Shown one piece after another: positions 8,660 to 64,000 of a stretch of 64,000 nucleotides of DNA; positions within the stretch are counted from its first letter, which is position 1; each line of letters begins with the position of its first letter. A program made the position numbers and the translations under genes. The stretch spans positions 73,906,001 through 73,970,000 of the forward strand of contig OZ076409.1 in the NCBI GenBank assembly GCA_964187785.1. Direction: 5' to 3'. The notes under the pieces are model-generated. The model saw only the letters and a program-made list of their open reading frames with translations, was not told the origin of the DNA and searched no databases. The DNA comes from Amphiscolops sp. MND2022. Taxonomy: Eukaryota.

Positions 8660-8708
8660 CCGCACGCAGGCTGTTAAGGCTGCGTGCGGCGTTCCTTTTC
8701 GACTCTAG
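8660..8708 (+). other. Candidate Helitron 3' terminal hairpin + CTAG
   Basis: Perfect 10-bp stem CCGCACGCAG/CTGCGTGCGG with 10-nt loop, then 15 nt, then CTAG. The next base is C rather than the usual T. Confidence 0.6.
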
Positions 8709-12790: not shown

Positions 12791-13449
12791 TCTTTTTTGG
12801 GGCCCAGATAGCGTGTGTCCTCGTCGCGGCCCTGGGTACTGGTGAAACATCACCAGTAGCAAGAGCGCTATCAAACATACTTTTCGCCAAGGAGCCATGT
12901 TTCCAAAAAGTAATAAAACTGGTAATATAATCTTATGGAGGGTAAAACGAAAGGTATTTGAAATATAATGAGGGTTTTCGACGACACTGATTCTGAAAAC
13001 ACTAACAGAATTTGTTAGACATCGGGAACATACATTACTAGAGATGGGCGCTCGCCCAGAGGTGGCGCTCTGCTGAAACAATGAAAAAAGCCTCATATTC
13101 ACTAACATTGTTTTCAGGCCTTCTCCAATGGTTTTCTCGGCTAGTTCACACCGTACTAACGTGATAAAACCAAGTAATTATTTGAGACCCGACAAAAGTG
13201 CCAAATCCCATGATTCTCCCGGCTCAAATTGGTCTCCGAGCGCCTTTTCAACCGTTAAATAATAAAAAACGGTATTCAATTTATTGAGTTGAAAATTTTT
13301 CTATGGTGTCATCCAGACAAAGAATATTTGAAGTTGAGGTACGCAAAAGAGCGTAGTCTTCTTCAACATCAAAAACTCTTGCCAATGCAAACCGTCTGTG
13401 CCAAAAAAGCGAACCTATTTTATGTGTTCTTTTTTGCGGTAGCAGCTAG

Positions 13450-15442
13450 GTGGGCGGTAGGTTTCCCGTAGTCAAAAAAAAATTGCAGGCCGGGGTAGGG
13501 GCCCTGGCCGAGGCAAAATACCATAGAAAAGGTACCAAATTATGTGAGTTTAGAAAATTGAGCCATACAAATTCTCTGAAAATTGCTGTGTGTACCCTAT
13601 CGCCCAATCTAAGAACTTTTTCCTGCTGACGTTTTGCCCTCCAAATGTTACTAATATGACTTTTTGAAAAATTTATCTCTGGTTTTTCATCAAAAATAGT
13701 GATTTTGGCAATTTTTGTGAAATATCTCTGATTGCAATAATTTTTGGACGTTGACTGTGAAACAAGCTCGGAACCATCATTTCGTGACCATGGCAATGCA
13801 CTAAACACAAAAGATGTAGAGTTTTTAAATTTTTTGAAAATTTGACATTTTTAAATTTTTTTCACTACTATCAGTACCATATATGTCAAAATAACCTCAG
13901 AAAAATTTTTTATTTTATTTAATTTAGAATCCTTGCTATCCATGGTTTCTGTTAGTATCTACTCGCTGCCAGAGACTCAACAGTTAGCATCGAATCTGAA
14001 ATTAAAAATTTTTTCGAGGTCATAGGTGTTTCACAAGGATTTCACAACATAGTCTTGTTTTACAAATAGGTCATTTACAACATCATATTTTCATCGAGGC
14101 ATGTCGGATATAGTCTTATTGCTCACGAACGGTCCTACTGGCAACGTAATAACCATTTATAGAAATATAAAAGTTTTAAAAAATCTTTTCACCCGTTCTT
14201 CAGACATTTTTCAGACATTCGGAACTTAACTTAGAAAAATTTCGTCTCAAAAACCCATTTTTCGTCAGGTCGAAATTTGAAATTCAGCTTTTGAAGCACA
14301 AATATGCACTCTGACGTAACCAGTAGGGCCAATGATACTCAACAACACCATTGAGACTGGTATCAGTCGCTCCAAAAACATATGAGCCGTGATAAGACGT
14401 TTTTTTCAACAATACTGTTCAATTGATGTAAACATCGCGGAAGCCTTGGATTACAGTGAAAGTTGATTTGAACAAAAATTTACTCTTTTTTGTCAATCAC
14501 TATGTAGACAGAATGCGTAGGGTAAGTTTCAGCACTAATATGAAGATTTTGAAGGAATCGGGTTGCTCAAGGCAGGGTATGAGACACTTTTTTCTCAAAT
14601 ACTAGTGTTTTTCAAAACCTTTTCGTTAAATATCTCGAAAAGCAAACAATAAAAAATACTTTCTGATATCTAATTTAATTCCTAGAATATAAATGAATCA
14701 TGTGGTTGATCAGAAACTCTCTACTTTAATGTTTCCAGAAAAAAATCCCTTCCCATGTTTTATATCTGTAGCAGTAAAAAAAGTAGACGCTAAAAAATAC
14801 GCTATTTTGCTAAGATTGAATTGCAATTGTTTAGCTTTAAAACTCTTTTAATACTTCTAACGCCACCTTAAGGACTCAAGATGATTGAAAATGTCAATCA
14901 CAATGCTGACATGTAGTCTTTCTACGATCCTGGCTGGACAGATTTTGATTATTTTTCAAGTACCTGTTAACTGAATCTCGTGATAGCCTTCTAAGTTGAC
15001 CTTCTGCGTCAACTTGAGAAGGCTATCACTAAAATAAACTAAATTCTGATTTGTTTGTTTGTTCCTAACGTCTTTTGGTACGATCGTCTGACGGTTAGTT
15101 GGTTAAACCAGGTCGCTTATACTTCCACAATTTTCGACCACCGTCCGTGTATTCGGTTCACACGACTTTACATTTTCAGTCGTTTGTTTTCGATAACTAT
15201 CACAATGTACTGCCATTAGCGCAAAATTCATAATAGTACTTGGTTGGTTGAAATACTTAAACAACTGTTTCCATAGTTATTCGCGGTGATGGTACAATCC
15301 GCGCGCCTACATACCTACGGCGTCTTGTCACTACAACGCCTCATAGGGAAACAACGCCCATAGTCTGTAGGCATGCCGAGGCATGCCTTTCGACGACGCG
15401 CGCCAAATCTATGCGCGCCCGCACTTGTGCGGTAGCTGCTAG
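13450..15442 (+). mobile_element. Cassette 1, family A (1993 bp)
   Basis: Bounded by CTAGGTG junctions; homologous to cassette 33; GATAGCC-type hairpin 14980-15029. Confidence 0.75.
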
Positions 15443-16831
15443 GTGGTTGGGGCGGTCCCCAGAACGCACAAGGAGGCGCGGGGAGGGTCCTGCGCCGACG
15501 TAGAATAATTTCATATAATACTAGTATCCTACATGGGTGTTTTAGAGGCGATTTTGGAATCTAACCGTAGGATTTGGATAATTTTTTGCATGCGGCCATA
15601 ACTCGAAATTCTAAGAACTTTTTCCTACTGTCATTTTCCCCGCAAATTGTTTTTTGTTGACTTATGGCCGAAAAACCGGAAATAACGTCCTTTTTAGACG
15701 TTATATCCGAAGTGTCGTCATAACTTTTTTCCAGGGCATGCTAGCGTTCTCGTTCACTCTTACACTTAGTTGCAGCATCTCAAAATACAACTGGTGGAAA
15801 ATTTTGGTTGCATTCGGATCACCCCCCACCGAGATAGAAGGGTTCCCCCCTCCAGTTTTACCCCCCAAATTTGCAAAATAGCCAATTTTGAGCATGAAGC
15901 CGAGGATTTAGCGTACCCATACCCTCCTGATGTTTTGTTGTACGTATTGGGGTCAATCTGACGACATGTGTGGTTTTCACCCCCAACCCCCCCTTGGACC
16001 GGAAATGACACTTTTTTGTGTTTTTTGGCAGAATTTAGCCTTTTTCATTATTAGGCAGTCGTTTTAGGGACTCCTAGCAGGATATCGAAATTGAAATACA
16101 ACCTGATCACAACCCAGTGACAACATAGTGGCCACTTGGAGGTATCATCATGACCGGAAGTGGGGTCAACCCCCCTTTTTGTGACCGCTTTTTGACCTTG
16201 TGCACCAAAATGCCAACATCTTGAGGCCTAATGAGGCATTCAAATCTGTACCAAGATAAAATGTTAGACAACCGAAGTCCCGGAAGATCTTTAGCATATA
16301 CCGGAAGTTACCCCCCATGACCGGAAGTTACCCAATGTGACCGGAAATGGTCCAAAAATTAATGTAAAGTTGAATTTTTTACTATTTCAAGACCACTTAA
16401 TTGAAACTTTTCAATCTATAAACTAGCGTACTGGCTTGTTTTGCTGAATTTATGGAAATTGATGAGCTCTATCGCCCCCGATAGCCTTCGAAGTTGACCT
16501 TGCGTCAACTTTGTAGGCTATCGATAAAGAATAAGAAACAACAAAGTACATTGTTGCTCTCGTTTTTTTCCCGTTGTTTTTCCTCAAACATTCTTGAGAC
16601 ATATACATGGCCGTTAGTTGAAATCAATATTTAGCCCATGTTATAGCTGGAGCAGCGAAGCGTTACACAGACTAGTGTGGTTTTGAAATCACACTATTTA
16701 AATTAACAACTGACCGTCTTAGTCAACTCCACACATTCATACCAACGCCCACCGTCTGTGGGCATGCCGAGGCATGCCCTTCGACGACGTATGACGAATC
16801 CACTCCAACGACACCCGCAGTCCTCAGCTAG
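15443..16831 (+). mobile_element. Cassette 2, family B (1389 bp)
   Basis: Starts GTGGTTGGGGCGGTCCCC, ends CAGTCCTCAGCTAG; CCGGAA repeats; GATAGCC hairpin. Confidence 0.8.
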
Positions 16832-19800
16832 GTGGTCAGTGCTGTTGCGTTCATTTTTTTCCGGCCGTGGGGGAGGGCCCCTCTGAGGCCGGTCATTTTT
16901 CAGGTAACAGCTTTCTTATACAAAAAAGCGGGAAAAAACCTCAGTGCTCAAATCCCAACCGTCAGAATGAGCTGAAATTTGGCATGTAGCTAGTGCATTG
17001 CAAATGATTACGATGGGTTATAACGCTATGTTTGGCAAAATTGGTTTTGTTGCATTTTTTTTGTCATATAGGGCCAAAAATGGCCTTTTTTGCGTATTTT
17101 TTGCTTGACTAGCTAATAACTCGCGTTGGGTTGGTACTAGCGATACGGGTGTGGGGTATGGAATTGAAAGATTACCAAGTACCTTGCTGATGACGTTATT
17201 TGATTTCCGCTCACATCACCCCCCACGCCGGAAATGCCCAATTTGTCACTTCCGGTCGCAATTTTTGACTTTTTTGGATGGAGTTAAAACCCATTTCCGG
17301 TGTGAAGGAGTGGGTTGAGCGCTTCGACCCCAATATACTAAAAGTAGGTTTAGACAAAGTCCTATTAGGAAAAAAGTAATGTAAGCCCGTACCTATCACC
17401 CCCTCACCGGAAATAGGGGTCACGCCTCCTTTTTCTGTGTTGCAAAAGTGACATGTGCACATTTGTCCAACTCCGAAGCCCCGGAGCACCGTGGGACCGT
17501 TATACTTTCTAAACACCTATCCCACACGCTACCGGAAATGACCGGAAGTTTCACCGGAAATGACATCCTTGGACCGGAAATGGTCAAAAAAGGACTTTTT
17601 CAATAAAAAAAAGACACTTTTGGTGCAATTTTTAGGCAAAAAGCATAATTCGTGATACGCTTGTTGCAGTTGAAAGGGCCATTGTTCAGCAAGAATGCAT
17701 ACAGCATTACGTAGCACATCAAGTGGTTGATAATTTTTCGTCCATAATATCCATAGGACCGGAAATGGCCATTTTTGAATCGGAAATTTCTTCAGCTTGA
17801 TTTTTAACAAGTTTTTCCACAATATTAGTGTAGGAATTGCTCGTCGGATGCTTTAGGTCTATTTTAAAACTAGCTGACTGCTTCTTAGAAATGTATTTCA
17901 GAAATTCCAACCAATTCGAGATTACCGGAAATGGGAGTAATTGCCTCCTTTATGACCTTTGAATGATAAATTGTTAAAATCCGCAAATTATTTTATTCCA
18001 CAACTGTTGCTCAGGTTATATCTAAGCAATAACATCTGCTTGTTTTGAAGTGCTGTATTGTGGGAGATACAAATATTGCTTTTTAATAGTAATACATACG
18101 TGATATTCGCCGCAATAAAGATTTTTCAAATCAACCATTTTGAAGTCCTACTGGTGTTCCGCACACCCGAAATAATTTAAGTTTCTAGTTTCGATTTTCA
18201 GGCTTCCGCGACTATTGAGTTGAGATGATAGTTTTCACGTTCTCTGCAAAACGGGCATTTCATTGTGTATGTGACATTTATTGGGTTGTTTCACATGGTA
18301 ATTCAAAACTAATTGATCTTACAATTTAGAACAATTGAAAATTTTCAATTGAACAATAAATGTTTTAATAATTTCTCTTTCGTTAAAGATACTCTTTTGT
18401 GGCCATTAGAACAGGTTGAATTGGTTGAATAAGTAACCAGTGCGATACATCGTTTAATACATAACGTTTGACATCGTTTTCTTGCGAACAAAGACAAGCA
18501 TGATTTGTTGGAAGTTTTTACCATATCGCTTCAAATCGGTCGTGACAAACAATGAATTTCTCGTTTTAATTGCTACTTCGAAAGCAGCCTGAAAACGCAA
18601 ATCGATCTATTGAGTTATGGAGATGCAACTAAGCATTTCAAGTCTGGGTTTCAATTTAATACTATCACTCCGGACTATTTTTATGTCGCAAAAGTGATAA
18701 AGGGTGTTAGCAAGGTTAAAAACATCGAACAATTTTAAAAATGATGCCTCCGGAAAGGGAAGAAAAATGAGTTTTCCTGTCAAAACAATGATAACCACGT
18801 ACGAAACATCAAGTATTTGCATTGTTCAATAGTCCAAAACATGAATGAAGTTTTTAAATATCCAAGAGTTTCTAATCAAGCATGCGTTTCAAATGTCTCA
18901 CAGGGCAGCATCGTTTTCAAAAAACAGTGCTTTCAATGTGGTTTCATACCAGCAAAACGAACGCAGGCACAACCACACTCTCAAAATTCTTGCACAACAA
19001 CCAATTTCTTTGAAAATCCTATTTGATTCCTCAAGGTATATGGTGAGAACCCTGTTGGGTTCCAAAGTTGATGTGCTGTTTTCTTGGGTTTGCGAGATAA
19101 GTTACAACGGAAATCTGAAAGCAGGTCGTCTCAATAAAATACCTGTTGCTCTTTAAACGATTGGACTTAAGTAGTCGAAATTTATTCTCAGACACTTTCG
19201 ATCAGAGAATGTTTGAGTCCTAACGTTCGAATCAGGTTGGTTTCAGGTGGCTCGAAGTGCCAGCTGAACCAACCTTTCAAATAAAGAAAAACCCCACACC
19301 TCCCTTCATGCCACGCTACCCCGTATAGCGTTTCAACTTGACAGAAATTGGAACGTTTGATTTTGGCGTCGCTTGGGATTGACACACCAGTGTTGATACT
19401 AAATTTGGCAAAGAGAAATCGCACAAATGATTGTTTCTGTTTTTCCCTTTGATTTACTGTGTCGAGCGTACAAAGCAGTTTGGGAAACTAACTTGCATTT
19501 CCACTGAACGAAAAGCAAAAGTAGTAACATTGAAAACTTTCGGAATAAATTTAATCAGGTTTCCGTATTTGTGAGATCAGCTGCCACTCAGTTATCAGTT
19601 ACATCTTTCAAATTTTTAAGAACAACTAATCAAACTTTGCTCGACTCTCTTGGATAAGGCAACAATAGTTTACTAATCTGTACTCGTGGAAAAAAGTCAA
19701 CTGCCGGGTCAAAAACAATCTGTATGTAACTTTTCTCTCGTGCAAAGTTATTTTTTACCCCCTCTGACTCAACTATAGCATGTACGTAATGAAACCAATA

Positions 19801-19903
19801 ACACCTTCAACTGTTAATCAACGCCCACCGTCCGTAGGCATGCCGAGGCATGCCTTTCGACGACGCGCGCCAAAAACAATATAACGGCGCCACCCGCTTC
19901 TGG
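16832..19903 (+). mobile_element. Cassette 3, family C (3072 bp, unique interior)
   Basis: Shared 5' and 3' modules; ends in variant CTGG. Confidence 0.7.
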
Positions 19904-21174
19904 GTGGCCGCGTCTTTTAGATGGACTTTTAGCCCTGAGGCGCGGGTAGGGTCCTGCGCCGAGCTGGTGAAAATATACTACGTCCAAATCGCCCGTTCCG
20001 GAAACGATCTCGAAAACTGACCGTTAGAAATTCCTGAAAATTTGCATGTGGCCCCCAATTGGCGAGCAATGAAAAAGTGTAGGAGGTCATTTTTCCCAAA
20101 TTCCACTGTGAGACGAGATATATGAAAAAAACGGACCCCAAAATGACGGAAATTTCACTTTTTGACCATTAATGGGACATTATCTCCCCAGACAAGGCTC
20201 GGAGCAAAATTTGTCAGAACCCAAACCTGCAGCAGACTGTTAGAGCAGTACACACAGTAATTTTGAAAGAAATCCGATAATCACATGTTGAGAAATTGAC
20301 GTTTTTCCGGCGAAATTTCTAGCAAATGCAGTCTATCTCTGCCGTTTTTTGCCCAAAATTTTTCCGAGACACTCGCCTAAAGGCCTCCCCTGGCCGGTTT
20401 ACCTCCCAAAAAAACCATTTGGCCCTAAATACGAGGTTTCAGCGTTCTAGCTTTTCCCAGTAAAAAGTTATGGGACTTAGAAGTTTTTCAAAACTTTTCA
20501 AAATTTTTCTAAAAAAGTTCAGGCCGCCCAAAGTGAAGAAACTTCCACACAACTAGTATTGCAAGTGAATGCATGTGGAAAGCCCTGCACTTGACGAGAA
20601 AAATGCCGTTTAGAACGTCTTTTTATCTCAACTTGATGTTGACTTATGATCTTTTGAGTAGCGTATAACACGTGATCACAGTAGTGAAAACCCTAATTTT
20701 CAAAAATTTTCGAACAATAACGCATGAAAAGAACCTGGAAAAGGTTCCGATGGGTCAGTTGGGATGTCTGAAGCTTGTGTACATTCCCGTAGTGTATAGC
20801 GGATGTATTTGGGACTTATTAGAAATTGTGATATGTTTTATACAAGTCTTTGTTTCTCTTAGAATCTTATGCAGTTGAGTACATTCCATCTCCCTCTCAG
20901 GGGAGATGTGAATGTACGTTTGTCAAATGCCTTGTATATTTCACATCTTTGATGGATTCAAATAACTAAACAAGTGTGATTTGCGTTTGCCGAACCACTG
21001 CGACAAAATACCCTAAATCTATAGCGAGATTGTATGGTTTTTGTCTTTAGTGTTTCGTCTTGTGTAGCCGACTTCCACATCCAAATATAAACGCCCGCCG
21101 TCCGTAGGCATGCCGAGGCATGCCTTTCGACGACGTATGCCAAATACCCAATGCCACGCTGTCATTATCGCTAG
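19904..21174 (+). mobile_element. Cassette 4, family D (1271 bp)
   Basis: Junction-bounded; close relative of cassette 11. Confidence 0.8.
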
Positions 21175-22435
21175 GTGCCGGGATTTTCTATTCGTTTGGG
21201 GAAGATGCGCGCTGTTGGGGAGGGTCCCGGGCGCGCTCAGGTGTTTGTGGTTTTCCAACTTTGGAATCAGCACCCGCTGGGAACGATCTCGAGAACTATC
21301 CATACGATTTGGCTGAAATTTTGCATGTGGCTCCCAATGAACATTGTAAGAACAAATCCCTACTGGCGTTTTGCTGGGAAAAATCAAAATGTTGGTCAAA
21401 AATGCGATTTTCCGACGAAATTTTTGACTTTTTTTACTTTGACAGTCAAAATCTCGCCACAGGGTCACGCTAGGTACCCTAAACCCTGCTAATTATAATT
21501 TGCAATCTGTCTCAGGAATGCGGTGTGAAATTTTCAGGTCAATCGGGCTTAAACTCAGTGACTTAGAGCGATTTTTTAGGTGCATTTTTTGACATTTTTT
21601 GCATTTGCTGATTTATCTCTGCCGTTTTTTGCCCAGATTTTTTTGCGACCCTCTCCTAAAGACCTCCCCTGGCCGGTTTACCTCCCAGCAAAACCATTTG
21701 GCCCTAAATACGAAGTTTCAGCGTTCTAGCATTCCCGGGCGAAAAGTTGTGGGACTTAGAAAATTTTTTTGGAAACGCAAAATGTGTAAAGTCAACTTCA
21801 GGCCTCCCAAAGTCAAGGAACTTCCACACAACTAGGATTGCAAGTGGATGCATGTGGAAAGTACTGGGATAGACGAGAAAAATGAGCTATAGAACGACTC
21901 TGTAGCTTAACTTGACGTTGACTTATGATGTTTTGAGTGTGTGCTTGCTAAGGGGTCCGAAATTGAAAATTTTTGAAGAAAATTAATATCGTTAAAAATT
22001 CATCGGAATGCCTGCAATATACAGTAGAGCGTGTTCAATTGTAGCTGACTAATGCATCAACGCTGTTCAAGGTCTTTTAACTCAGTTTAAAAATTTTTTA
22101 CTTTGTATTATCCATCCGAGAGATCGAAACAGTTGAGTACATTCCATCTCCCTCCCGGGGGAGATGAGAATGTACTCGCTAAAGTCCAGATACCACAGCC
22201 CATATTTGTTTCTCTGCAACGCCATCTTTGCTACTGCACATAACTACTAATCTTAAGACTGAATTTCACTTTGACTTGACATATGCTGAAGGTTTGATCC
22301 TTTCACACATCATCTTTACCTGAACAAAACAACCCTAACATCAACGCTCCACACTCATATCAACGCCCACCGTCCGTGGGCATGCCGAGGCATGCCCTTC
22401 GACGACGTATAGCAAACAAACGCGGTAGCCGCTAG
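21175..22435 (+). mobile_element. Cassette 5, family D (1261 bp)
   Basis: Junction-bounded; related to cassette 22. Confidence 0.8.
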
Positions 22436-32850: not shown

Positions 32851-34227
32851 GTGGTTGGGGCGGTCCCCAGAACGCACAAGGAGGCGCGGGGAGGGTCCTG
32901 CGCCGACGTAGAATAATTTCATATAATACTAGTATCCTACATGGGTGTTTTAGAAGCGATTTTGGAATCTAACCGTAGGATTTGGATAAATTTTTGCATG
33001 CGGCCATAACTCGAAATTCTAAGAACTTTTTCCTACTGTCATTTTCCCCGCAAATTGTTTTTTGTTGACTTATGGCCGAAAAACCGGAAATAACGTCCTT
33101 TTTAGACGTTATATCCGAAGTGTCGTCATAACTTTTTTCCAGGGCATGCTAGCGTTCTCGTTCACTTTTACACTTAGTTGCAGCATCTCAAAATACAACT
33201 GGTGAAAAATTTTGGTTGCATTCGGATCACCCCCCACCGAGATAGAAGGGTTCCCCCCTCCAGTTTTACCCCCCAAATTTGCAAAAAAGCCAATTTTGAG
33301 CATGAAGCCGAGGATTTAGCGTACCCGCACCCTTCTGATCTTTTGTTGTACGTATTGGGGTCAATCTGACGACATGTGTGGTTTTCACCCCCAACCCCCC
33401 CTGGGACCGGAAATGACACTTTTTTGTGTTTTTTGGCAGAATTTAGCCTTTTTCATTACTAGGCAGTCGTTTTATGGACTCCTAGCAGGATATCGAAATT
33501 GAAATACAACCTGATCACAACCCAGTGACAACATGTTGGCCACTTGGAGGTACCATCATGACCGGAAGTGGGGTCAACCCCTCTTTTTGTGACCGCTTTT
33601 TGACCTTGTGCACCAAAATGCCAACAACTTGAGGCCTAATGACGCATTCAAATCTGTACAAAGATAGAATGTTAGACAACTGGAGTCCCGGAAGATCTTA
33701 GCATATATCGGAAGTTACCCCCCATGACCGGAAGTTACCCAATGTGACCGGAAATGGTCGAAAAATTAATGAAAAGTTGAATTTTTCACTATTTCAAGAG
33801 CACTTCATTGAACATTTTCAATCGCAAAACTAGCGTACTGGCTTGTTTTGCTGAATTTATGGAAATTGATGAGCCCTATCACCCCCGATAGCCTTCGAAG
33901 TTGACCTTGCGTCAACTTTGGAGGCTATCGATACTGAAAATGAACAACAAAGTACATTGTTGCTCTCGGTTTTTTCCCGTTGTTTTTCCTCAAACATTCT
34001 TGAGACATATACATGGCCGTTAGTTGAAATCAATATTTAACCCATGTTATACCTGGAGCAGCGAAGCGTTACACAGACTAATGTGGTTTTGAAATTACAT
34101 TACTTAAATTAACAACAGATCGTTTTAGTCAACTCCACACATTCATACCAACGCCCACCGTCTGTGGGCATGCCCTTCGACGACGTATGACGAATCCACT
34201 CCAACGACACCCGCAGTCCTCAGCTAG
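32851..34227 (+). mobile_element. Cassette 14, family B (1377 bp; 10-bp deletion in terminal palindrome)
   Basis: B termini; only GGGCATGCCC remains at ~34166. Confidence 0.8.
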
Positions 34228-43477: not shown

Positions 43478-45853
43478 GTGGTCGGGGTGTGTTTCCCAGC
43501 CAATTTTGCCGCGCGGGGAGGGACCCGTTCAGCGGCCCAGGTAATTATTTTTTTACATTAAAAAAAACGATACCCCGGAAAGCGATTTCGAAACCCACCC
43601 GTAGGATCCCTCTGAATTTTTGCATACACCTCCGTATAACAGTTCTAAGAAAAAGTCAGCAAGGGCGTTTTCAGTTCTAAACGGGGAATGTTGACCAAAA
43701 AGCGCAATTTATGTCCAAAAAAATGCAATTTTTCGACTTTTTTATTTTTGACGGCCTACAGCTCTTTTCCAGATGCCCGCCCAAGTCATAAACCGGAGAG
43801 AACTTTTGTTGGGCACTTCGTGAAGAATCTGTAGGGTGATTTTCGTTTCAATCCTATTTCCTGACGTTGACTTATGGTTGGGTGAAAAAACGCAACATTT
43901 GTTACAAAAAGTGCTTTTGGTACTCAAGGGCCCATAACTCGTGACATAATCAATTGAGCAAGTTCGTGTATTATTACGATTTTCTTGCCTATCTATAGGA
44001 GAACAAACAAGCAGACACAAAATTTTCTGTGGGAAATCGTCAAAAAAAGATATCACAGGTTTTATACTCAATAAAACAGTGTGTTTCGGTTATCGTGGAA
44101 AAAATGTAAAATGGTGGCATTTCTCGGCTGTTCACGGTAGCGGGTCTTTTATTGCAGTTATTAACTCGCCTCTAGTAGTCATTTACTTGGATGATTTTCA
44201 CTTTTGATAAATTGCATGATAAACTTCATTTTTTGCGTCACCAATATTGACACCCACGATTACAGTCAAATTTTTCGCGTTCACGTTTTTCAATGGATAT
44301 AACTTTTTTCCAGTGTGTTTTACGGTTCTCACACAGGAGTGCAAAATTGTTGCCCGTCTTAAATGGAAAGTATATGGTGAGTTTAGAGTAATTTGAAAGG
44401 TTTTTGAAAAGTCCAGAGATGCACAAATTTACAGTTTTTTTGCCCACAAAACACTATTTTACGAAACCCAACACTTTTTGCCAAAAAAGTCAAACTTCGT
44501 CCACACAACTTTGATTGCAAGTGGATGCATGCGAAGAGTACTTGAAATGATGAAAAAAATGAGCTATAAAACGCTCCTTTACGACAACTTGACGTGGACC
44601 GAGGATAATTTGAAAAATCACGAAAAAAAAGAACAACGGTTCCAAAACAATCAGTTTGTAGTTAATGGCCAATAACTCCATACACAACCCTCCGCGCAAG
44701 CTAGTGTCCAAGTACGTTTTTGTTACCCGTGAACAGTGCAACAAATAAGTAAAGGTAAAACATTATGTTGAATTTCGTCAGTGGAAGAAATAACGTGATT
44801 TTATATCACATTTGAGTGACAAATTTGAAAAATTAGTCTATTCCGGGCATTTTACCTAAACTTTTTCGACAGTACACATACAGGGGGTAAAATTGGCCAA
44901 ATATCATGCCTAACAAAACTATTTGATCCATTGGCCGCAATTTGAGCGTTCCACCTTTCCCAAGTCATAAATTATGGGACTTCGAAAATTTTCAAAATTT
45001 CCATTTTTCAACAAAATTTCAAATTCAGGCCCCCCAAAGGTAAGAAAGTTCCACACAACTAGGATTGCAAGTGGTTGCATGTGGAAAGTACTCGAACTGA
45101 CGAGAAAAATGGGCTTTAGAACGTCTCTCTATCGTAACCTGACGTTGACTTATGATGTTTTGAATGTGAGATTGCTACGGGGTCGAGAAGTGTAAGTGGA
45201 ACATATGTCTCGTTGAAAACTCATCGGAATACATCCAATGAACCCCAATCACCCTCAATTGCAGTTTCCTAGTGCAACAACGTCTGTCAAGGACCTTTTT
45301 TGATAAGAGTCGAAATTATTATTAAATTCAGTTAGCAAGAAACACTTGAGTACATTCTCATCTCTCCCCATCGGGGGAGATGAGAATGTACTTGCAAATT
45401 GGCCTCATTTGTTTTCATGCGAGGCATTCTGTGCTTTGGCACACATAGATAACTTTGTTTTGTCTGTCTTTTTGCATATACTTTAAATTGTCATTAGAAA
45501 TTTGCCGACTTTACTTTACGTAAAATTAACTTTCTACAATGCACCTTTAACGTCAAAGCCACATAAATTTAGACTCCTATCGTCGAAAAACATACCGCGG
45601 CATCTTTTTCGATGACGTATGCCGAAACACAAATGTGAAAAAGTGATGAGATTCAGAAACAGTGACAAACAATTTTTACTATTTGACATAAGGTAGGTTT
45701 TTATATGGAACTTACACATCACTGATATTTAATAACAATCCAGCTGACGAACACATACCAACATCACCGCCCACCGTCCGTAGGCATGCCGAGGCTTGCC
45801 TTTCGACGACGTATGCCTAATCCACTCCCCGACGCCCCCACTCCCCCGTCTAG
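43478..45853 (+). mobile_element. Cassette 20, family F (2376 bp)
   Basis: Junction-bounded; E-like 3' half; CCACACAACT block present twice. Confidence 0.75.
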
Positions 45854-53853: not shown

Positions 53854-55122
53854 GTGGCCGGGAATTTTTTTTCCACTCAATTCTTTGCCAACTGGGGGAG
53901 GGGCCCCTGGTGGCTGGTGTTCGGATTTACATACTACTGTATTCGGGGCTACATTTTAACGATCTCGAGATCTAACCATACGATTCGCCTAAAACTTTGC
54001 ATGCAGGCCCAAAATGAGATTGTAAGAACAATGATATAAGCGTTTTTCCTGAATTTTTGCAAAAAGTTGGTCAAAAACGCAAAAAATGGGCCAAAATTGA
54101 CCTCTTTTTCAACTTTTTTATTTTTGAGAGCCCATATCTCGGAACGAGGTGGCCGTAGCGGGCCGCATAAGGACTCCGTTTTTGCTGGGCACTTGATGAG
54201 GAGTGCGTGGACAAATTTTCGTCCAAATCGAAGGAAAATTGACTGAGTAATGAGTGATTTTTTGACGACCTTTTTTGCGAACCCCATTGTATCTCTGCCG
54301 TTTTCCGCCAAAATTTTCAAAAATGCTTCTACAGGAGGCAATCCCTGCCCAATTTTCTGCAAAACAAAACCATTTGGCCCTAAATACGAGGTTTCAGCGT
54401 TCTAGCATTCCCCGGTGAAAAGTTATGGGACTTAGAAATTTGTCAGTGAAACGCAAAATTTGTAAAGTCAACTTCCGGTGCCCAAAAGTCACAAAACTTT
54501 CACACAACTAGTATTGTAAGTGAATGCATGTGGAAAGTACTGAAATAGACGAGAAAAATGAGCTATAGAACGACTCTTTACCTTAACTTGACGTTGACTT
54601 ATGATGTTTTGAATGTGAGCATCCTATCTGATTTTAATGTCAAAAATGAGATTTTGTAAGTCATGTCTCATCAAAAACTCAACGGAATACGTTCAATCAT
54701 CTCTATAGCTGTTCAATTGCCGTGGCTTAGCGCAGCAACGCCATTTAATGTCTTTGGACCCATTCTGAAAAATTTTGACACCGTCTTATTCGTCCGATAT
54801 CACAAAGCAGTTGAGTACATTCCATCTCCCCCTTGAGGGGAGATGAGAATGTACTCGCTAAAGAGCTGGTACTATGGCCCATATTTGTTTTTAATTGACG
54901 CTTCCTATGAGGTTTCACACGGATACCTCTATTTGGTAACACATTTTCTTTTGCACCATGTTTATATATGCTAAACCACTTCATTAGCTTCTACTATCTA
55001 TACTCACACATGACTAACGTCAACGCCACATACTCGCATCAACGCCCACCGTCCGTAGGCATGCCGAGGCATGCCTTTCGACGACGTATACCTAGTATAC
55101 GCGTTAGCGCGGTAGCCGCTAG
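53854..55122 (+). mobile_element. Cassette 27, family D (1269 bp)
   Basis: Junction-bounded; cassettes 27-29 are closely similar neighbours. Confidence 0.8.
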
Positions 55123-56391
55123 GTGGACGGGAATGTTTTTTTCCAACCAATTCGATGCCAACTGGGGGAGGGGCCCCTGGTGGCTGTTACCCGAATTACA
55201 TACCTACCCAAATCGTCCGCTCCGGATACGATCTCAAAACTGAGCCACACAATTTTCCTGAAACTTTGCATGTGGGCCTAAAATGAGATTGTAAGAACAA
55301 TGATATAGGCGTTATTCCTGAATTTTTTCAAAAAGTTGGTCAAAAACGCAAAAAATGGGTCAAAATTGACCTCTTTTTCAACTTTTTTTATTTTTGAGAG
55401 CCCATATCTCGGAACGAGGTGGCCGTAGCGGGCCGCATAAGGACTCCGTTTTTGCTGGGCACTTGATGAGGAGTGCGTGGACAAAATTTCGTCCAAATCA
55501 AAGTAAAATTGATTGAGTAATGAGTGATTTTTTGGCGACCTTTTTTGCGAACCCTATTGTATCTCTGCCATTTTCCGCCAAAATTTTCAAAAGTGGTTCT
55601 ACAGGAGGCAACCCCTGCCCAATTTTCTGCAGAACAAAACCATTTGGCCCTAAATACGAGGTTTCAGCGTTCTAGCATTCCCCGGTGAAAAGTTATAGGA
55701 CTTAGAAATTTGTCAGTGAAACGCAAAATTTGTAAATTCAACTTCCGGTGCCCAAAAGTCACAAAACTTTCACACAACTAGTATTGCAAGTGAATGCATG
55801 TGGAAAGTACTGAAACAGACGAGAAAAATGAGCTATAGAACGACTCTCTACCTTAACCTGACGTTGACTTATGATGTTTTGAATGTGAGCATCCTATCTG
55901 ATTTTAATGTCAAAAATGAGATTTTGTAAGTCATGTCTCATCAAAAACTCATCGGAATACGTTCAATCATCTCTATAGCTGTTTAATTGCCGTAGCTTAG
56001 TACAGCAACGCCATTGAATGTCTTTGGACCCATTTTGAAAATTATCGATACCGTCTTATTCGTCCGATATCACGAAACAGTTGAGTACATTCCATCTCCC
56101 TCTTTGGGGGGAGATGAGAATGTACTCGCTAAAGAGCTGGTACAATGGCCCATATTTGTTTTTAACTGACGCTTCTCATGATATTTCACACGTACACCTC
56201 TATTTGGTAACACATTTTCCTTTGCACCATGTTTATATATGCCAAACCACTTCTTTACCTTACTACTTCTACTCAAACATCACCAACGTCAACGCCACAT
56301 ACTCGCATCAACGCCCACCGTCCGTAGGCATGCCGAGGCATGCCTTTCGACGACGTATACCTAATATACGCGTTAGCGCGGTAGCTGCTAG
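55123..56391 (+). mobile_element. Cassette 28, family D (1269 bp)
   Basis: As cassette 27. Confidence 0.8.
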
Positions 56392-57658
56392 GTGGCCGGG
56401 AATTTTTTTTTCCACTTAAATCTTTGCCACTGGGGTAGGGGCCCCTGGTGGCTGTTACCCAAAATACATACCTACTAAAATCGTCCGCTCCGGAGACGAT
56501 CTCGAAAACCAATCCATAACTTTTTCTGAAACTTTGCATGTGGGCCTAAAATGAGATTGTAAGAACAATGATATAGGCGTCATTTCTGAATTTTTGCAAA
56601 AAGTTGGTCAAAAACGCAAAAAATGGGTCAAAATTGACCTCTTTTTCAACTTTTTTATTTTTGAGAGCCCATATCTCGGAACGAGGTGGCCGTAGCGGGC
56701 CGCATAAGGACTCCGTTTTTGCTGGGCACTTGATGAGGAGTGCGTGGACAAATTTTCGTCCAAATCGAAGTAAAATTGATTGAGTAATGAGTGATTTTTT
56801 GACGACCTTTTTTGCGAACCCCCTTGTACCTCTGCCATTTTCCGCCAAAATTTTCAGAAGTGATTCTACAGGAGGCAACCCCTGCCCAATTTTCTGCAAA
56901 ACAAAACCATTTGGCCCTAAATACGAGGTTTCAGCGTTCTAGCATTCCCCGGTGAAAAGTTAGAGGACTTAGAAATTTGTCAGTGAAACGCAAAATTTGT
57001 AAAGTCAACTTCCGGTGCTCAAAAGTCACAAAACTTTCACACAACTAGTATTGCAAGTGAATGCATGTGGAAAGTACTGAAATAGACGAGAAAAATGAGC
57101 TATAGAACGACTCTCTACCTTAACCTGAGGTTGACTTATGATGTTTTGAATGTGAGCATCCTATCTGATTTTAATGTCAAAAATGAGATTTTGTAAGTCA
57201 TGTCTCATCAAAAACTCATCGGAATACGTTCAATCATCTCTATAGCTGTTCAATTGCCGTAGCTTAGTACAGCAACGCCATTGAATGTCTTTGGACCCAT
57301 TTTGAAAATTATCGATACCGTCTTATTCGTCCGATATCACGAAACAGTTGAGTACATTCCATCTCCCTCTTTGGGGGGAGATGAGAATGTACTCGCTAAA
57401 GAGCTGGTACAATGGCCCATATTTGTTTTTAACTGACGCTTCTCATGATATTTCACACGTACACCTCTATTTGGTAACACATTTTCCTTTGCACCATGTT
57501 TATATATGCTAAACCACTTCTTTACCTTACTACTTCTACTCAAACATCACCAACGTCAACGCCACATACTCGCATCAACGCCCACCGTCCGTAGGCATGC
57601 CGAGGCATGCCTTTCGACGACGTATACCTAGTATACGCGTTAGCGCGGTAGCCGCTAG
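56392..57658 (+). mobile_element. Cassette 29, family D (1267 bp)
   Basis: As cassette 27. Confidence 0.8.
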
Positions 57659-58945
57659 GTGGCCGGAAATTTTTTTTTTCAGCAAAATCTTTGCCATTGG
57701 GGGAGGGGCCCCGGATGGCCAGTAGTACGGGATAGCTTCCTACCAAATCCAGGCGGAAAAAACGTGATTTTGGAAACTAGCCGTCAGAATTTGCTCAAAT
57801 TTTGCATACGGCTTCCTATAACAACCCTAAGAACTAATCCCTACTGGCATTTTGCCCAAAAAACGCAAAAAGTTGGTCAAAATCTTAGTTTTTTGGTCAA
57901 AAAATGGCGTTTTTTCGAAAAAAATTTTTTTCAGAGACAATTACTCGTAACTGGTTCACCTAGCGCAAAAACGCCTAGCTGATTTATTGTTGGGCACTTC
58001 ATGAGGAGTGCGTATACAAATTTTCGTCCAAATCGGATAAAAGTTGATTGAGAAATAACTGAAAATTTGAGGCATTTTTTTGGAAATTTTTGAAATCCCA
58101 GTCTATCTCTGCCGTTTTTTGCCCAGATTTTTTTCCAGACACTCTCCTAAAGACCTCCCCTGGCCGGTTTACCTCCCAGCAAAACCATTTGGCCCTAAAT
58201 ACGGAGTTTCAGCGTTCTAGCATTCCCGGGCGAAAAGATGTGGGACTTAGAAAAAATTCAAAAATTTTCAAAATTTTTTTTTGCGTTTCCCGGACCCCCA
58301 ATGAAGGGGAACGACCCCCCAACTAGGATTTTTGGTGAATCCATGTGAAAAGGCCTTGTTTAGTGGAGCAAATTGCCGTTTAGAGCGACTTTTTATCTTA
58401 ACTTGACGTTGACCTCTGTCGTTTTGAATTTGATATTAGTATGTGTTGAGCATGTGAAAAGTTGATGATTTCAATTGTTCTCTCGTGTTCAAGCCATTGA
58501 GATACAAGCGGTAGTGATCAAAATGTGATTTATCGCAATTTGGTGGTGCTTTTGGTGTATTTTGATTCTTTTAAATAAAAAGTTGTTCTTTATATATTTG
58601 GTGTATTAATTCAAATTAACAAGAAACAGTTGAGTACATTTCATCTCCCCCCTTGTGGGGGAGATGAGGATGTACCCGCTAAATGACACGCACAATGGCC
58701 CACTTTTACTTTTATGCGACGTTTTCTAGGCTTTTGCGCAAGCCCACTATTATTTAGACTGGTTTCCTTTTCTTTTACTCCAAAATTTTCCGTACTAACC
58801 ACCTTACGCACCACCAGCTCAACGTAACATCTGTAACGTCAACGCCACACACTCTCACTAACGCCCACCGTCCGTGGGCATGCCGAGGCATGCCCTTCGA
58901 CGACGTATGCCAAATAGCGCCACAGGGCGCAAACTTGTCCGCTAG
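57659..58945 (+). mobile_element. Cassette 30, family D (1287 bp)
   Basis: Very similar to cassette 15. Confidence 0.8.
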
Positions 58946-60248
58946 GTGGCCACGACCATGGTTTCTTGCGTATCTTGTCGAATCTTTTGTCGTTGCCGGC
59001 CGGGGAGGGACCCGTTTGCCGGCGTGTGTAGTGTGGGGCCCCCATACCCAAAAAGTGGTATTTTTTTCAGAGATCTCAAAATCGGCCCATCAGAATTGCC
59101 TGAAATTTGGCATGAGGCTCCCAATTGGGGAAAAAATAAGAAGTGTAGGAGGCGACTTGTTCGGGTAAATATTGTATGTTGACTTTTGGCCAAAATAGTG
59201 TTCCCCCCCAACATGGGCAAAATCACATGAGGTGTAAAAATATGATCACAACTTTTGAACCTTTGGATTTAGGGGTACGGTCGTGGACCACATTAAGCAA
59301 GAGCTTTGGTGAGCGGGTAGGATAGATGGGTTTTGATCCCAGTACCTTCAACCACTTTTGAGAAATTAACGTTTCAAACAAACATCCGGGAGGTATATGT
59401 TGCCCCTGAAGGCAGGTTTTTCGCCATTTTCAATGTGAAGGAGTGGGTTTAGCGCAACGTGTGTGGTGTGCTTTTTTGTTGCCCGTGTGCGGAGCGTTGT
59501 ATAGAGGTGCTGGTTGTTGAAATTGGAAAAGTTGGTAAAAAGTTATACCTATACCCCCCCTACTGTCTCTGCCATTCAATTTTTTTTCAACTTCAGGCCT
59601 CCCAAAGGTGAGAAACTTCCACACAACTAGAATTGCAAGTGAATGCATGTGGAAAGTACTCGGATAGACGAGAAAAATGAGCTATAGAACGACTCTGTAG
59701 CTTAACTTGACGTTGACTTATGACATTTTGAGTGTGAGCTTGCTATGTGAGAAAAAAAATCAAAATTTAAAATCGAAGCGAAGTCTCATCCAAAACTCAT
59801 CGAAATACGTTCAATCCATCCCAAAGCGGATTAATTCCAGAAATATAGTGCAGCAACACTATTCAAGACCATTTGACACAATTTTAATAGTTTTGACATT
59901 GTATTATTCATCCGAGAGCACAAAACAGTTGGGTACATTCCATCTCCCTTTCGGGGGAGATGAGAATGTACCCGCTAAATGACACGCACCATGGCCTAAT
60001 TTTTACCGTTATGCGACGTTTTCTAGGCTTTCGCGCAAGCCCACTAATATTTACACTGGTTTCTTTCTCTTTCACTCCAAACATTCCGTCCGTACTAACC
60101 ACCTTACACACCACCAGCAGCTCAACGACACATCTGTAACGTCAACGCCACATACTCGCATCAACGCCCACCGTCCGTGGGCATGCCGAGGCATGCCCTT
60201 CGACGACGTATGCCCGTTGTCACAACAGGGCGCCCCTACATTCTCTAG
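58946..60248 (+). mobile_element. Cassette 31, family D variant (1303 bp)
   Basis: Distinct left half, D right half, 3' tail like cassettes 15/30. Confidence 0.75.
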
Positions 60249-61521
60249 GTGGTCGGGGGATTTCCCAACCTCTTCCGGCCGCGTGGGGAGGGACCCACTG
60301 CCGGCCCCCCAGCTCAGAAAACTAACCTCATAAAACACCCCCTCAAAACAACGATCTCGAAACCCACCCATACGATTTTGCTGAAATTTTGCATGCGGCT
60401 CCCAAATTCCGATAGAAGAACAAATCCCTACTACCATTTTTCCGGCTATAGCCAAAATGTTGGTCAAAAATGACAATTTATGAGTGAAAAATGGCTTATT
60501 TTCAACTTTTTCAACTTTGAGCGGCTATTACTCCTTCCAGGGTGCTCGGAGCGATACGGTACCGGACGGCAATATTGTTCAGCACTTCGAGGAGAACCTA
60601 TAGACGTATTTTGGTGCTATTCGGATAAAAATTGGTTGAGTAATAGCCGGAATTTTGACGATTTTTTTTGAAAAATTCTCACACCCTAGTCTATCTCTGC
60701 CGTTTTTTGCCCAGATTTTTTTCCAGGACCTCTCCCAAAGGCCTCCCCTGGCCGGTTTACTTCCCAGCAAAACCATTTGGCCCTTTTGCCGCAGTTTCAG
60801 CGTTCCAGCATTCCCCGGGTAAAAGATAAATGACTTAGAATTTTTTCGAAAAGTTTTCAAAAAATTTTTTTTTCAACTTCAGGCCTCTCAAAGACAGGAA
60901 ACTTCCACACAACTAGTATTGCAAGTGGATGCATGTGGAAAGTGCTCGAATAGACGAGAAAAATGAGCTATTATAAAACTCTGTAGCTTAACTTGACGTT
61001 GACTTATGACAATTTTAGTGTGAGCTTGCTATGTCGTAAAAATGAAAAAAACTTAAAATGGAAGATAAGTCTCGTCCAAAACTCGTCGGAAAGCCTCCAA
61101 TCGACCCCAGGGCTGTTCAATCAACACTGTTTAGTGCCGCAACGCTATTTAGGGCCTTAGGACCCATTTTGGTAGGTTTTGAAACCGTCTTATCCTTCTA
61201 AAAGCACAAAACAGTTTCGTACATTCCATCTCCCTTTCGGGGGAGATGAGAATGTACTCACAAAAAACCAAGTATTACAGCCCCATTCTACCTGTAGTGG
61301 CGTTAGAAAGGCATCAGTGTGAGCTCCAGGTAGCTTACAGTAGTCTCTACCTATGTTGTGACTCTGTTATAAATGTATTTATGTTACCAAACGTGAATGA
61401 TTTGTTTTACTCCAAAATTATTTTACATTTAATGTCATCAATGCACGCATTTCAATCTATCTGCAACTACTACTACCTACCCATTCCCCCGTGCTAGTCA
61501 CGCACAAGCCTGCAGCGCTAG
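60249..61521 (+). mobile_element. Cassette 32, family D lacking the terminal palindrome (1273 bp)
   Basis: D core; last ~250 bp unrelated to siblings but still ends GCTAG|GTGG. Confidence 0.75.
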
Positions 61522-63509
61522 GTGGGCGGGGGTAATTCCCCAACAAAAAAATCGGCCGGCGGGTCGGGTCCTGCCGGCCGTCCAAAATCAAAATTATACT
61601 AGTAGAAAACGGCCGGTCAAACGAGCTATTTTTTTATTTAACCGTTAGAATTTGGGTTTAGATTGCATGCGGCCATGAAATGGCCATACGAATCGAAGTT
61701 CCTGTTGACGTTTTGCGATTGAAACACTTTATAAAAAGTTATGGCCAATTTGTCAGTCACCTAGAAGGGCAAAATGAGGAAAATTTTAACAAAGTCGCTG
61801 ATATCTCAAAATGTGTTAATTTTTGGACTTTGACTGTGAAACAAGCTTGGAACCTTCATTTCGTGGCTGTGGCATTGCACTGAACACAAAAGCTGTAAAG
61901 TTTTCACATTTTTTGAAAATTCGACATTTTTGAAATTTTTTTCACTACTATCAGTACCCCATATGTCAAAAACACCTCAGAAAAATTTTTTTATTTGCTT
62001 TAAGTTGGAAACCTTGGTATCCATGGTTTCTGTCGGAACCTACTCGCAGCCAAACACCCAACAGTTTGCATCCAATGTGAAATAAAAAATTTTTTCGAGG
62101 TCATAAGCGTTTCACAAGGTTTTCATGATTTAGTATTAAATTACATAGTGGTCATTTTAAACATAAAATTTTGGTCCAGGCATGTCGGATATAGTCTGAA
62201 TGCTCACGAACGGTCCTACTGGCAACGTAGGAACCATTTATAGTAATAAAAAGTATTAAAAATTTTTTTCACCCGGTCTTCAGTCATTTTTCAGATATTC
62301 GGAACTTAACTTAGAAAATTTTCGAACCAAATACCCATTTTTTGTCAGGTCGAAAATTGAAATTCAGCTATTAAAGCAAAATTTTTTACTCTGACGTAAC
62401 CAGTGGGGTCCATGATACTCAAAAATACGATTGGGACTGGTACCAATGGCTCCTATATCATATGAGCCGCGATAAGACGTTATTTTGAGCAATACGTCTC
62501 AATTGAGGTAAACATCTCGCAAGCCTGGGATCACAGTGAAATGTAATTTCATCAAAAAATTACTCATTTTCGTCAATCACTATGTGCATAGAGTGGGTAG
62601 GGTGAGTTCCAACACTATAATGAGGTTTTTGAAGGCATCGGGTTGCTCAAGGGGTGGTATGAGTCATTACTTTCCTATATACAACTGTATTTTCAAAAAC
62701 TTTTAGCCCATTATCTGGAAAAACTAACTTGACAAAATACTTTCAATTACTTTATTCAAAGGTTACAATATAGATGAACACTGTGGTTGATCAGAAACTT
62801 TCATCTCTTTCGTTTTCCGAAATAACTCCTTTCAAATGTGTTACATTTGTAGCAGGAAAAAAAACTGAAACTAAAAAATACGCGATTTTGCTGAGATAGA
62901 ATCGCAATGGTTGCGCCTAAAATCTCTTTAAAAACTTCTAACGCAGCCTTATGGACCCAAAATGATTGAAAATGCCATTCACAATGCTGACATGTGCTCT
63001 TTCTACGATCCTGGCTGGACAAGTTTTGCATTTTTTTCAAGTACCTGTTAACTGAACATTGTGATAGCCTTTCAAGTTGGCCTTGTGTCAACTTGGGAAG
63101 GCTGTCACATCAAAAAACTGTCCACAAAAATACCATTTGTTTATAGGATATTGCTGTCGATGCTTCACTTCGTGATTCGATCATGTCGTGAGTTCCTTCC
63201 ATCAGGTCAGCTAACATTTGGATTCAGTGTTGGATAAGAACCTATGATTTTCATGACAATTTTCGTTTTTTTTTTGCCAACAAAAAGTACAAATAAATGA
63301 TATAAAACATATTTGTAACCTCTAGGAAGTTTAACTTTACCTTTTTTACCGTTACCATCACAACCCACCCCCTACGACCTCGCAGTGTCCTCATTACAAC
63401 GCCACATAGTGTAGCGACGCCCACAGTCTGTGGGCATGCCGAGGCATGCCCTTCGACGACGTATGCCAAAAATAGCGCCCTCCGCGGTCACTACCGCGGT
63501 AGCAGCTAG
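61522..63509 (+). mobile_element. Cassette 33, family A (1988 bp)
   Basis: Collinear with cassette 1. Confidence 0.78.
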
Positions 63510-64000
63510 GTGGTCGTTAGCATGGGATTTTCTTTATGAGCGTAGTCCACTTTTTTTAGGCCGGGGTAGGGTCCCGGGCCGTTACCAATTTCTTACGGAG
63601 GAAAAATGTGAAAATCTGCGAGTTTAAAAAATTGGCCCGTACGATTTGGCTGAAAATTGGCACACAGCATCGTCTTGGTAAACAAATGACTTTGTCCTAG
63701 TGACATTTTGCCCAGAAAATTCAAAAAGTTGGTCAAATTGAAAATTTTTTGACCGTCTAAGGCTAAAATTTGACTTTTTCGCTTTTTTTGGTCAATTTCC
63801 TCAGAACTGGTTGATTTTGGTGAAGTAAGTCATAAGAGGTTATAAGGTCTGCAAAAAGCCATCAATTGGCTTGCATAATCAGATTTTGTCAAAAGTGTTT
63901 AGTTTTTTCAAAATTCCACACTTTTTTTTCATGTCAGTGTTTTTTGATACAATTTATTGAATTTTTACTAAGTTCCACTAAATATTTTTAAAATGTTTTT
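63510..64000 (+). mobile_element. Cassette 34, partial (runs off window)
   Basis: Follows CTAG|GTGG; has GGGGTAGGGTCCC and CGATTTGGCTGAAA 5' modules. Confidence 0.7.

Follow-up and report, generated by a model that had tools for sequence, protein, structure and literature searches.

The question raised by this locus is how many different elements come to be stacked head to tail, without a single base between them. In the genome of Amphiscolops sp. MND2022 (assembly GCA_964187785.1, size 1.07 Gb), positions 73,906,001 to 73,970,000 of contig OZ076409.1 (C1 below; this whole stretch of 64,000 nucleotides is the window) carry non-coding units of several families, all in one orientation and joined at one short core, together with a gene for a RepHel transposase, in which a rolling-circle Rep is fused to a helicase. 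Helitron target choice has been thought of as a loose dinucleotide preference, tandem Helitrons have been explained as concatemers of one element, and target choice and nicking are the least understood step of Helitron transposition. The best reading of our analysis is that these elements represent a third Helitron-like lineage, which integrates preferentially at the junctions of resident elements.

The core CTAGGTG occurs 33 times on the plus strand between positions 13446 and 63512, against a mean of 1.1 and a maximum of 5 in 200 dinucleotide shuffles. A 34th junction of the window has the variant form CTGG|GTG (19903/19904) and divides an apparent 4,343-bp unit into 3,072 + 1,271 bp. The window thereby holds 33 complete units at 13450-63509 plus one partial unit, which abut with zero spacer. 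The initial annotation had counted 33 units in about six size or sequence families; the 33 complete units and the six size classes (about 1.26-1.30, 1.38-1.40, 2.0, 2.19, 2.38 and 3.07 kb) stand, but by sequence the units fall into 18 families (cut-off at least 85% identity over at least 80% coverage), and the variant junction had been missed. Every unit in the window starts with GTG(G/C). The terminal module that all were said to share, a 3' hairpin followed by TTCGACGAC, is present in 32 of the 33, on the plus strand only; it is missing from the unit at 60249-61521 and is 10 nt short in that at 32851-34227. The features of the array are as follows.

13446-13452, plus strand: first window junction, CTAG|GTG, with the boundary at 13449/13450, where an autonomous element ends and a unit starts.
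13450-63509, plus strand: 33 complete non-autonomous units of 18 families, head to tail.
15475-15496, plus strand: example of the 5' subterminal hairpin, GGG(T/G)AGGG(T/C)CC, a putative origin; the same hairpin opens the metagenome element L108.
16753-16786, plus strand: example of the 34-nt 3' hairpin, a putative terminator, with a covarying stem pair.
19900-19906, plus strand: variant junction CTGG|GTG, overlooked at first.
43478-45853, plus strand: 2.38-kb unit of a family to which the autonomous element in the window is 90% identical over about 1.8 kb at its 5' end.
60249-61521, plus strand: unit with a different 3' end type, in which the GCATGCC hairpin module is absent and the end is still CTAG.
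63510-64000, plus strand: partial 34th unit, 1,278 bp in total, with its end outside the window.

The anatomy of the units was read from about 0.8 Mb of fetched sequence, which yielded 193 units in 55 families. Start words are GTGG in 146 and GTGC in 45 of 191 sampled units, and end words are CTAG in 158 and CTGG in 33 of 193. Most units carry a 5' hairpin with GGG(T/G)AGGG(T/C)CC about 30-55 nt inside the start, and a 34-nt 3' hairpin lies 16-90 nt (median 43) upstream of the unit end. One of its stem pairs covaries, being G-C in 107 and A-T in 43 of 150 matched units, with no mismatches; other 3' end types do without this hairpin. That the units have no terminal inverted repeats, as first proposed, holds for 53 of 53 family representatives: neither terminal nor asymmetric inverted repeats were found, the longest match between 5' and 3' ends is at most 7 nt, and the ends of one family match each other no better than those of unrelated families (5.2 own, 5.3 unrelated). 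Their description as non-coding also holds, with no ATG-initiated open reading frame (ORF) longer than 117 aa in the 42 non-autonomous representatives scanned, and a search of the units against Rfam for structured RNA gave zero matches. Two further sequence features stand beside these. A second, imperfect palindrome of 42-45 nt, of two sequence types, lies about 320-520 nt from the 3' end in several families (in the window at 16484-16528), and conserved words (GATCTC, GCTGAAATTTTGCATG, TAAGAA..CCT.CTG) lie 100-500 bp inside the 5' end of most families and of the metagenome locus L108. This conserved 5' block occurs again internally in larger units; it is possibly a protein-binding or lagging-strand signal.

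How do such units enter DNA? Insertion is exact, without target duplication, in fixed orientation, and at CT(A/G/T)G^(G/A/T)T. The four bases upstream of one family's start are CTAG in 16 cases, CTTG in 8, CTGG in 7, and ATAG and CTGT in one each (n = 33), and at free 3' ends without a following G, base +1 is A (25) or T (8) and base +2 is T in 31 of 33. At the empty site of a solo copy, 10 of 10 paralogous host copies join the left to the right flank directly. At that of a two-unit array, seven of nine host copies do so and one has a 1-nt indel, and in the ninth a different family has inserted independently at the identical base (C2:28,530,633 and C1:91,803,185, loci L102 and L136, two copies of one host repeat). 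A third empty site is likewise continuous in one diverged copy. Two-unit arrays of different families occupy an exact empty site. The boundary must lie between the tetranucleotide and GTG, because left flanks end in CTGT or CTGC and right flanks start with A or T; sampled units were cut at the GTG(G/C) motif itself, and the empty sites give the same boundary independently. The target mimics the HUH cleavage word itself. The 3' end recreates the target word, and therefore every inserted copy leaves a new target at its 3' end, where the junction with the next unit is the element's own end-to-start joint. The initial annotation had suggested precise insertion at the ends of earlier units and mapping of units across the genome; the exact empty sites and the junction preference described below bear out the former, and the latter found arrays plus solo copies whose flanks give the target word. 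One solo copy, L098 (C6:59.22 Mb), ends early at a CTAG just past the hairpin and is preceded by CTGT, an alternative end at a non-consensus target.

The array is far larger than the window. Co-oriented, spacer-free units joined at one core had been described correctly, and the stack that they form measures about 6 Mb. It does not start at 13446, as had been thought: units fill all 224 kb read around the window, at least 70 kb further upstream and at least 90 kb further downstream, and the marks of the C1 block run from 70.46 Mb to 76.47 Mb. Nine of ten 4-kb samples from C1:70.85-76.05 Mb consist wholly of units (8 on the plus strand, 1 on the minus strand) and one is 28% covered, whereas 0 of 3 samples outside the block are covered by units. 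The 3' hairpin module has 4,919 exact matches genome-wide (reversed control, 0). The Rep region has 131 genome matches at 30-100% identity, many in open frames of more than 2,200 aa, with other gene clusters at C2:102-104, C3:2.4-3.9 and C4:77.1-77.6 Mb, and small arrays and solo copies are dispersed elsewhere. Four 3' end types are locally clustered, and autonomous elements sit among units of their own end type. Orientation flips within the arrays at L027 (C1:23.97-23.98 Mb) and L160 (C1:76.05 Mb) are probably inversions. Within the 6-Mb block, L154 (C1:72.30 Mb) holds about 3.3 kb that match no sampled unit and have no long ORF, and at C6:53.116-53.162 Mb four free 3' ends with identical host flank mark a local segmental duplication that includes element ends. 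The genome also has ordinary HLE1 and several HLE2-like Helitrons, which are dispersed; the seven loci concerned (L083-L089) contain 0 unit junctions.

Why should units lie end to end so often? For one end type, GTG(G/C) stands next 1,870 times against 33 + 18 free ends, such that about 96% abut a unit, a figure from this end type only, with a free-end filter that passes about 75% and with free ends before GTG(A/T) or diverged sequence uncounted. At two other end types a unit stands next in 94 of 100 and 87 of 100 cases (the first 100 listed for each). Units make up only about 0.1% of genomic target words, and a choice by the short target alone should place about that share of 3' ends against a unit; the use of junctions far exceeds this expectation. 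That target choice might be guided by base pairing between the two neighbours, as in IS608, was rejected as an explanation, as pairing between real neighbours does not exceed that between shuffled ones (p 0.13 for all 169 junctions, 0.23 for the 136 mixed ones). It is also possible that the preference comes from local hopping or a chromatin niche instead, whereby the same elements would use the same short target without recognising resident ends, and a reusable word would collect one insertion after another ("double insertion"). Solo copies accept a degenerate 6-nt word, end types are locally clustered and one host site was hit twice independently, as might be expected on such a model, and McGurk and Barbash (10.1101/158386, in its accessible part) name insertion-site preference as the main source of transposable-element dimers. 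But local hopping alone would nest and invert units. Internal CT(A/G/T)G^(G/A/T)T words on both strands number about 5 per 1.3-kb unit (background 0.0019 per strand-base), yet no unit lies inside another among the 193, and 8 of the 9 fully covered samples from the 6-Mb block share one orientation. We consider this model unlikely.

A mixed stack might also arise when blocks of units are copied. Units are in fact added one at a time: among 38 near-identical pairs of non-adjacent units (at least 98%), none has an equally close pair of neighbours, and therefore units arrive singly. Together with the 371 of 432 long alignments that cross no junction, this rules out block duplication as the source of the family mix. 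Tails are alike when the family upstream of the junction is the same (0.66) but not when the downstream one is (0.165), each head goes with its own family, and family identity switches at the CTAG|GTG junction, which is where units had been proposed to begin and end. These findings also speak to a satellite-like origin, in which rolling-circle concatemers of single families would have been mixed later, through gene conversion or unequal crossing-over where they have terminal modules in common. Same-family runs do exist, some families have different 3' tails, and the same 34-nt 3' hairpin on transposases only 30-40% identical suggests end exchange. Against such an origin, the identity switch falls at CTAG|GTG and not within the shared hairpin, the close pairs give no sign of higher-order repeats, and different-family two-unit arrays sit in exact empty sites; it is distinctly improbable.

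Several points nevertheless weigh against junction-directed, single insertion as the whole account, among them the uncounted free ends and the possible local component noted above. Units of one family stand next to each other more often than expected in the 224-kb contig (20, against 4.3 when shuffled), and therefore concatemer formation, local duplication or local re-insertion also contributes; in the window alone the excess is insignificant (4 against 2.0, p 0.11). Nor did we find growth polarity: the identity of the nearest copy shows no trend along 7 small arrays, by a noisy measure.

Which enzyme moves the units? The initial annotation treated the RepHel gene as a neighbour of the array, but the 23-kb RepHel element is itself an array unit, with the following features in the window.

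1-13449, plus strand: 3' part of the autonomous element, 23,130 bp in total, which starts with GTGG 9,680 bp upstream of the window and ends with CTAG.
121-693, plus strand: SGNH/GDSL-hydrolase-like ORF, 190 aa, a weak match (Pfam Lipase_GDSL_2, E 0.035).
1016-8251, plus strand: RepHel-GIY-YIG transposase ORF, 2,411 codons between stops; counted from the first ATG (1121), the protein has 2,376 aa.
4268-5095, plus strand: HUH-Y2 Rep core, with motif 1 FLTFTLN, motif 2 FEFQ..GNAPHLH (H1176, H1178) and motif 3 YLAKY (Y1352, Y1356).
6368-7690, plus strand: PIF1-family (SF1B) helicase (E 1.1e-12).
7880-8107, plus strand: C-terminal GIY-YIG-like nuclease domain (Pfam E 6e-4, below the cut-off; many relatives score above it).
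9253-10355, plus strand: accessory gene for a predicted two-OB-fold, Zn-ribbon, RPA/Teb1-like single-stranded-DNA-binding protein, in two frames in the window copy.
11952-12573, plus strand: (TATTC)n microsatellite within the autonomous element.

We delimited 14 autonomous RepHel elements of 12-23 kb, all bounded by the same junctions as the non-coding units. In 13 of them the first 0.6-1.8 kb are 88-98% identical to a non-coding family (in one of these the match begins after a hidden CTCG|GTG junction), and the remaining one reaches 83%; the window's element matches the family of the unit at 43478-45853. This shared sequence supports the view, already put forward in the initial annotation, that the non-coding units are non-autonomous mobile partners of this RepHel clade. 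One autonomous element occurs on both C1 and C10; the copies are 98.5% identical, and their neighbours differ at either end. The 3' hairpin module has been lost from the copy in the window and is retained in a close one at C1:71.32-71.35 Mb. The accessory OB gene is present in 12 of 12 autonomous elements aligned and forms a single frame in the close copy; its protein has no Pfam family and 15 homologues, all unnamed, and its model, with a predicted local distance difference test (pLDDT) score of 86, resembles the OB domains of RPA/Teb1-type proteins (Z 9.0; Foldseek E 4e-5). ORFs similar to the SGNH-like one are found in 4 other autonomous elements. The first description of the stack as "integron-like" does not hold: we found no recombinase, and so no tyrosine integrase, among the ORFs of the 14 autonomous units, each array begins in host DNA of unrelated sequence with no fixed attI or other entry site, polarity did not show in the 7 small arrays by the noisy measure used, the transposase elements are themselves cassettes, and the sites of solo copies are short degenerate words in otherwise unrelated DNA. 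That an integron-, Crypton- or DIRS-like site-specific recombinase swaps cassettes at the CTAGGTG core, with RepHel elements as passengers, would suit the exact joints at a short shared core, the single orientation and the cassette-like units, but is highly implausible given the lack of a recombinase ORF in any of those 14 units, a core that is asymmetric about the exchange point, solo insertions governed by HUH rules, and 5' sequence common to autonomous RepHel elements and cassettes.

The autonomous elements vary among themselves. Transposases only 30-40% identical in the Rep core share the 34-nt 3' hairpin, and others at 51% differ in end type; ends seem to have been exchanged or homogenised between families. 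In one subfamily (L065-L066 at C1:70.557-70.565 Mb; L106-L108; P0081), found in this genome and a metagenome, the RepHel frame stops straight after the helicase, at about 2,200 aa, and here a further ORF in another frame follows; an intron or a programmed frameshift ahead of the C-terminal domain is possible. At L067:2995-4298 (C10) a unit ends at CTCG|GTG, a word identical to the IS91 terminator. Some members of the clade have OTU- or Ulp1-type protease domains (P0093, P0107, P0119 and P0190 by Pfam; L061:8321-9169, minus strand, by eye from the motif).

Where does this transposase belong? Its HUH and YxxKY motifs (H1176/H1178, Y1352/Y1356) are invariant in 12 of 12 aligned transposases, and a C-terminal GIY-YIG is present in 9 of 13 relatives scanned. 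The predicted Rep matches the Helitron transposase 7LCC (Z 11.9, root-mean-square deviation 3.9, 222 aligned residues; next match Z 5.5), from a model whose mean confidence is low (mean pLDDT 54, core 70-88), a point to be set beside those weighed above. Only this fold search found a match; the Rep profile gave nothing meaningful against Protein Data Bank sequences, and the ESM Atlas returned only generic Helitron_like_N clusters. By profile search the lineage is large: 393 cluster representatives pass a threshold of E<1e-30, and 2,026 pass E<0.001. Relatives occur in 19 metagenome loci, too short to show arrays, among which only L108 shows a 5' end, with the same 5' hairpin and conserved 5' block. 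Viral contigs yielded no Rep relative, 8 single matches to the junction pattern and 0 arrays. In a 48-row Rep core tree, 29 clade rows stand apart from 12 HLE1 and 7 HLE2-like rows (SH-aLRT 100), in what was a quick, unrooted and thinly sampled search with a long-branch warning, for which clade rows were picked by similarity to the query, HLE2-like rows were assigned from motif and size, and 12 rows (8 clade, 4 HLE1 proteins) missed by the motif pattern were left out. In this tree Rep represents a long-branched lineage separate from HLE1 and, with less certainty, from HLE2; it has relatives in other genomes. DUF6570 had zero matches in Pfam scans of the window proteins and relatives. The clade scores below or near the Pfam Helitron cut-off, and standard annotation may therefore miss it; the HELIANO paper reports at least 4 unclassified clusters of Helitron-like elements (HLE) in 19 genomes, and these may include this clade.

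Comparison with described systems, for which we rely on the accessible parts of the papers cited, sharpens the placement. With Helitron1/HLE1 (e.g. Helraiser; PMC4778049, PMC11417382) the elements share an HUH-Y2 Rep fused to a PIF1 helicase, the Rep fold, a 3' subterminal hairpin, a CTRR-like 3' end, the lack of target duplication, an RPA-like accessory protein and non-autonomous derivatives. Unlike HLE1, they start with GTG and not TC, have a 5' hairpin, place the 3' hairpin about 43 nt from the end, and use CT(A/G/T)G^(G/A/T)T where HLE1 uses A^T (PMC11417382); the initial annotation was right that a GTG start after CTAG is not standard Helitron behaviour. Their Rep is 15% identical to that of Helraiser, on a separate long branch, and their transposases have 2,200-2,850 aa with a C-terminal GIY-YIG and lie mostly in mixed stacks. 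Helitron2/Helentron/HLE2 (PMC3627910, PMC5148889, PMC11417382) likewise has hairpins at both ends (the 5' one here is about 30 nt inside, not terminal), a Rep motif 2 of the type EFQ..G..PH.H, and larger transposases with extra domains, OTU being found in some relatives here; one HLE2 family with a captured GIY-YIG is on record there. In contrast to HLE2, our elements lack asymmetric inverted repeats (0 of 53 families with 8 nt or more; 8-15 bp in HLE2), T-rich ends and the T^T target (PMC11417382, PMC3627910), and the clade falls outside the 7 HLE2-like rows of the unrooted, thinly sampled Rep tree. By protein the clade is a member of the Helitron superfamily; its 5' end, target and tree position are not those of HLE1, nor are its inverted-repeat state and target those of HLE2.

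The target logic is, by analogy, IS91-like. The IS91 family (IS91, IS801, IS1294; PMC13181058) comprises orientation-specific Y2 HUH rolling-circle transposons with palindromes at both ends and no target duplication, and their target, CTTG, is similar to the word cleaved at the terminator (CTCG or GTTC), a likeness between target tetranucleotide and terminal cleavage word that we find here too. IS91 is bacterial, however, with an unrelated Rep and no helicase, and the accessible text of that paper reports no long mixed stacks. Two HUH-helicase proteins, the TrwC relaxase, which integrates into oriT, and the Rep of adeno-associated virus (AAV), act by the mechanism that we propose here: each inserts DNA at a resident copy of its own origin or at a mimic of it. 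They belong to plasmid or virus systems, however, and form no cumulative chromosomal stacks (PMC6049929). Tandem Helitrons in plant centromeres, Drosophila, bats, Meloidogyne and Hydractinia are also head-to-tail rolling-circle elements in large clusters, but as single-family or truncated concatemers, single nested cases or satellite-interleaved arrays, and not as full-length units of 55 families, many intact autonomous elements among them, that change from one family to another across an exact joint (PMC5148889, PMC13404089, PMC11934779). Replitrons (PMC10288648) are eukaryotic HUH transposons that insert 3' of a short word in fixed orientation, but their Y1, CRESS-virus-like Rep without a helicase and their terminal direct repeats differ from what we find. 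What is accessible of a centromere atlas mentions Helitrons only in passing (10.64898/2026.09.17.752431). In the literature outside subscription journals and Repbase reports we came across neither this target rule nor mixed RepHel stacks.

We think it probable that a divergent Helitron-like lineage of rolling-circle elements, autonomous as well as non-autonomous, makes up the arrays and favours resident junctions as full origins. By analogy with Helraiser and IS91, transposition would begin with a nick by the HUH-Y2 Rep at the 5' end, 3' of CT(A/G)G. One strand would be peeled off by the PIF1 helicase together with the OB-fold protein, and the 3' hairpin would halt displacement at CT(A/G)G. 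A circle closed at CTAG|GTG, much like the exact head-to-tail joints of Helraiser circles (PMC4778049), would then join a target in which that word, too, has been nicked on its 3' side. A resident junction would offer a full origin, that is the word, GTG, the 5' hairpin and the conserved 5' block, and the transposase would therefore prefer it over a bare word; it may be bound and nicked much better and serve as the integration site, as oriT does for TrwC. Positive feedback would turn a solo copy into a growing mixed stack, and same-family runs were probably added by read-through or multi-round rolling. The GIY-YIG domain, first put forward as the source of target specificity, finds no support in that role. 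In one RepHel subfamily the GIY-YIG motif has decayed, yet its copies lie at normal junctions; the domain is therefore unlikely to define the site, although these copies could be moved in trans; we speculate that second-strand resolution is its more likely task. A bolder version, to which we give even weight for and against, is that the transposase is a sequence-specific integrase at the origins of resident elements in a widespread third lineage, whose many families, their transposases only 30-40% identical, share ends, cross-mobilise and build megabase single-orientation "safe harbour" arrays sheltering intact autonomous copies.

The lineage offers a natural test of how HUH transposases pick and nick their target, and its enzyme is a candidate for inserting DNA repeatedly at a defined site. 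If the integrase reading proves true, it would be a natural tool for scar-free, repeated insertion of large cargo (up to 23 kb) at one landing pad. For the biology of these elements, we would have a eukaryotic RepHel lineage with IS91 logic that lands nearly always at the joints of earlier elements and so forms exact mixed arrays of megabase size. A transposon could in this way grow directly into an array on the scale of heterochromatin, with no need of unequal crossing-over, and the same behaviour may explain why many diverged autonomous families persist next to one another in an intact state.

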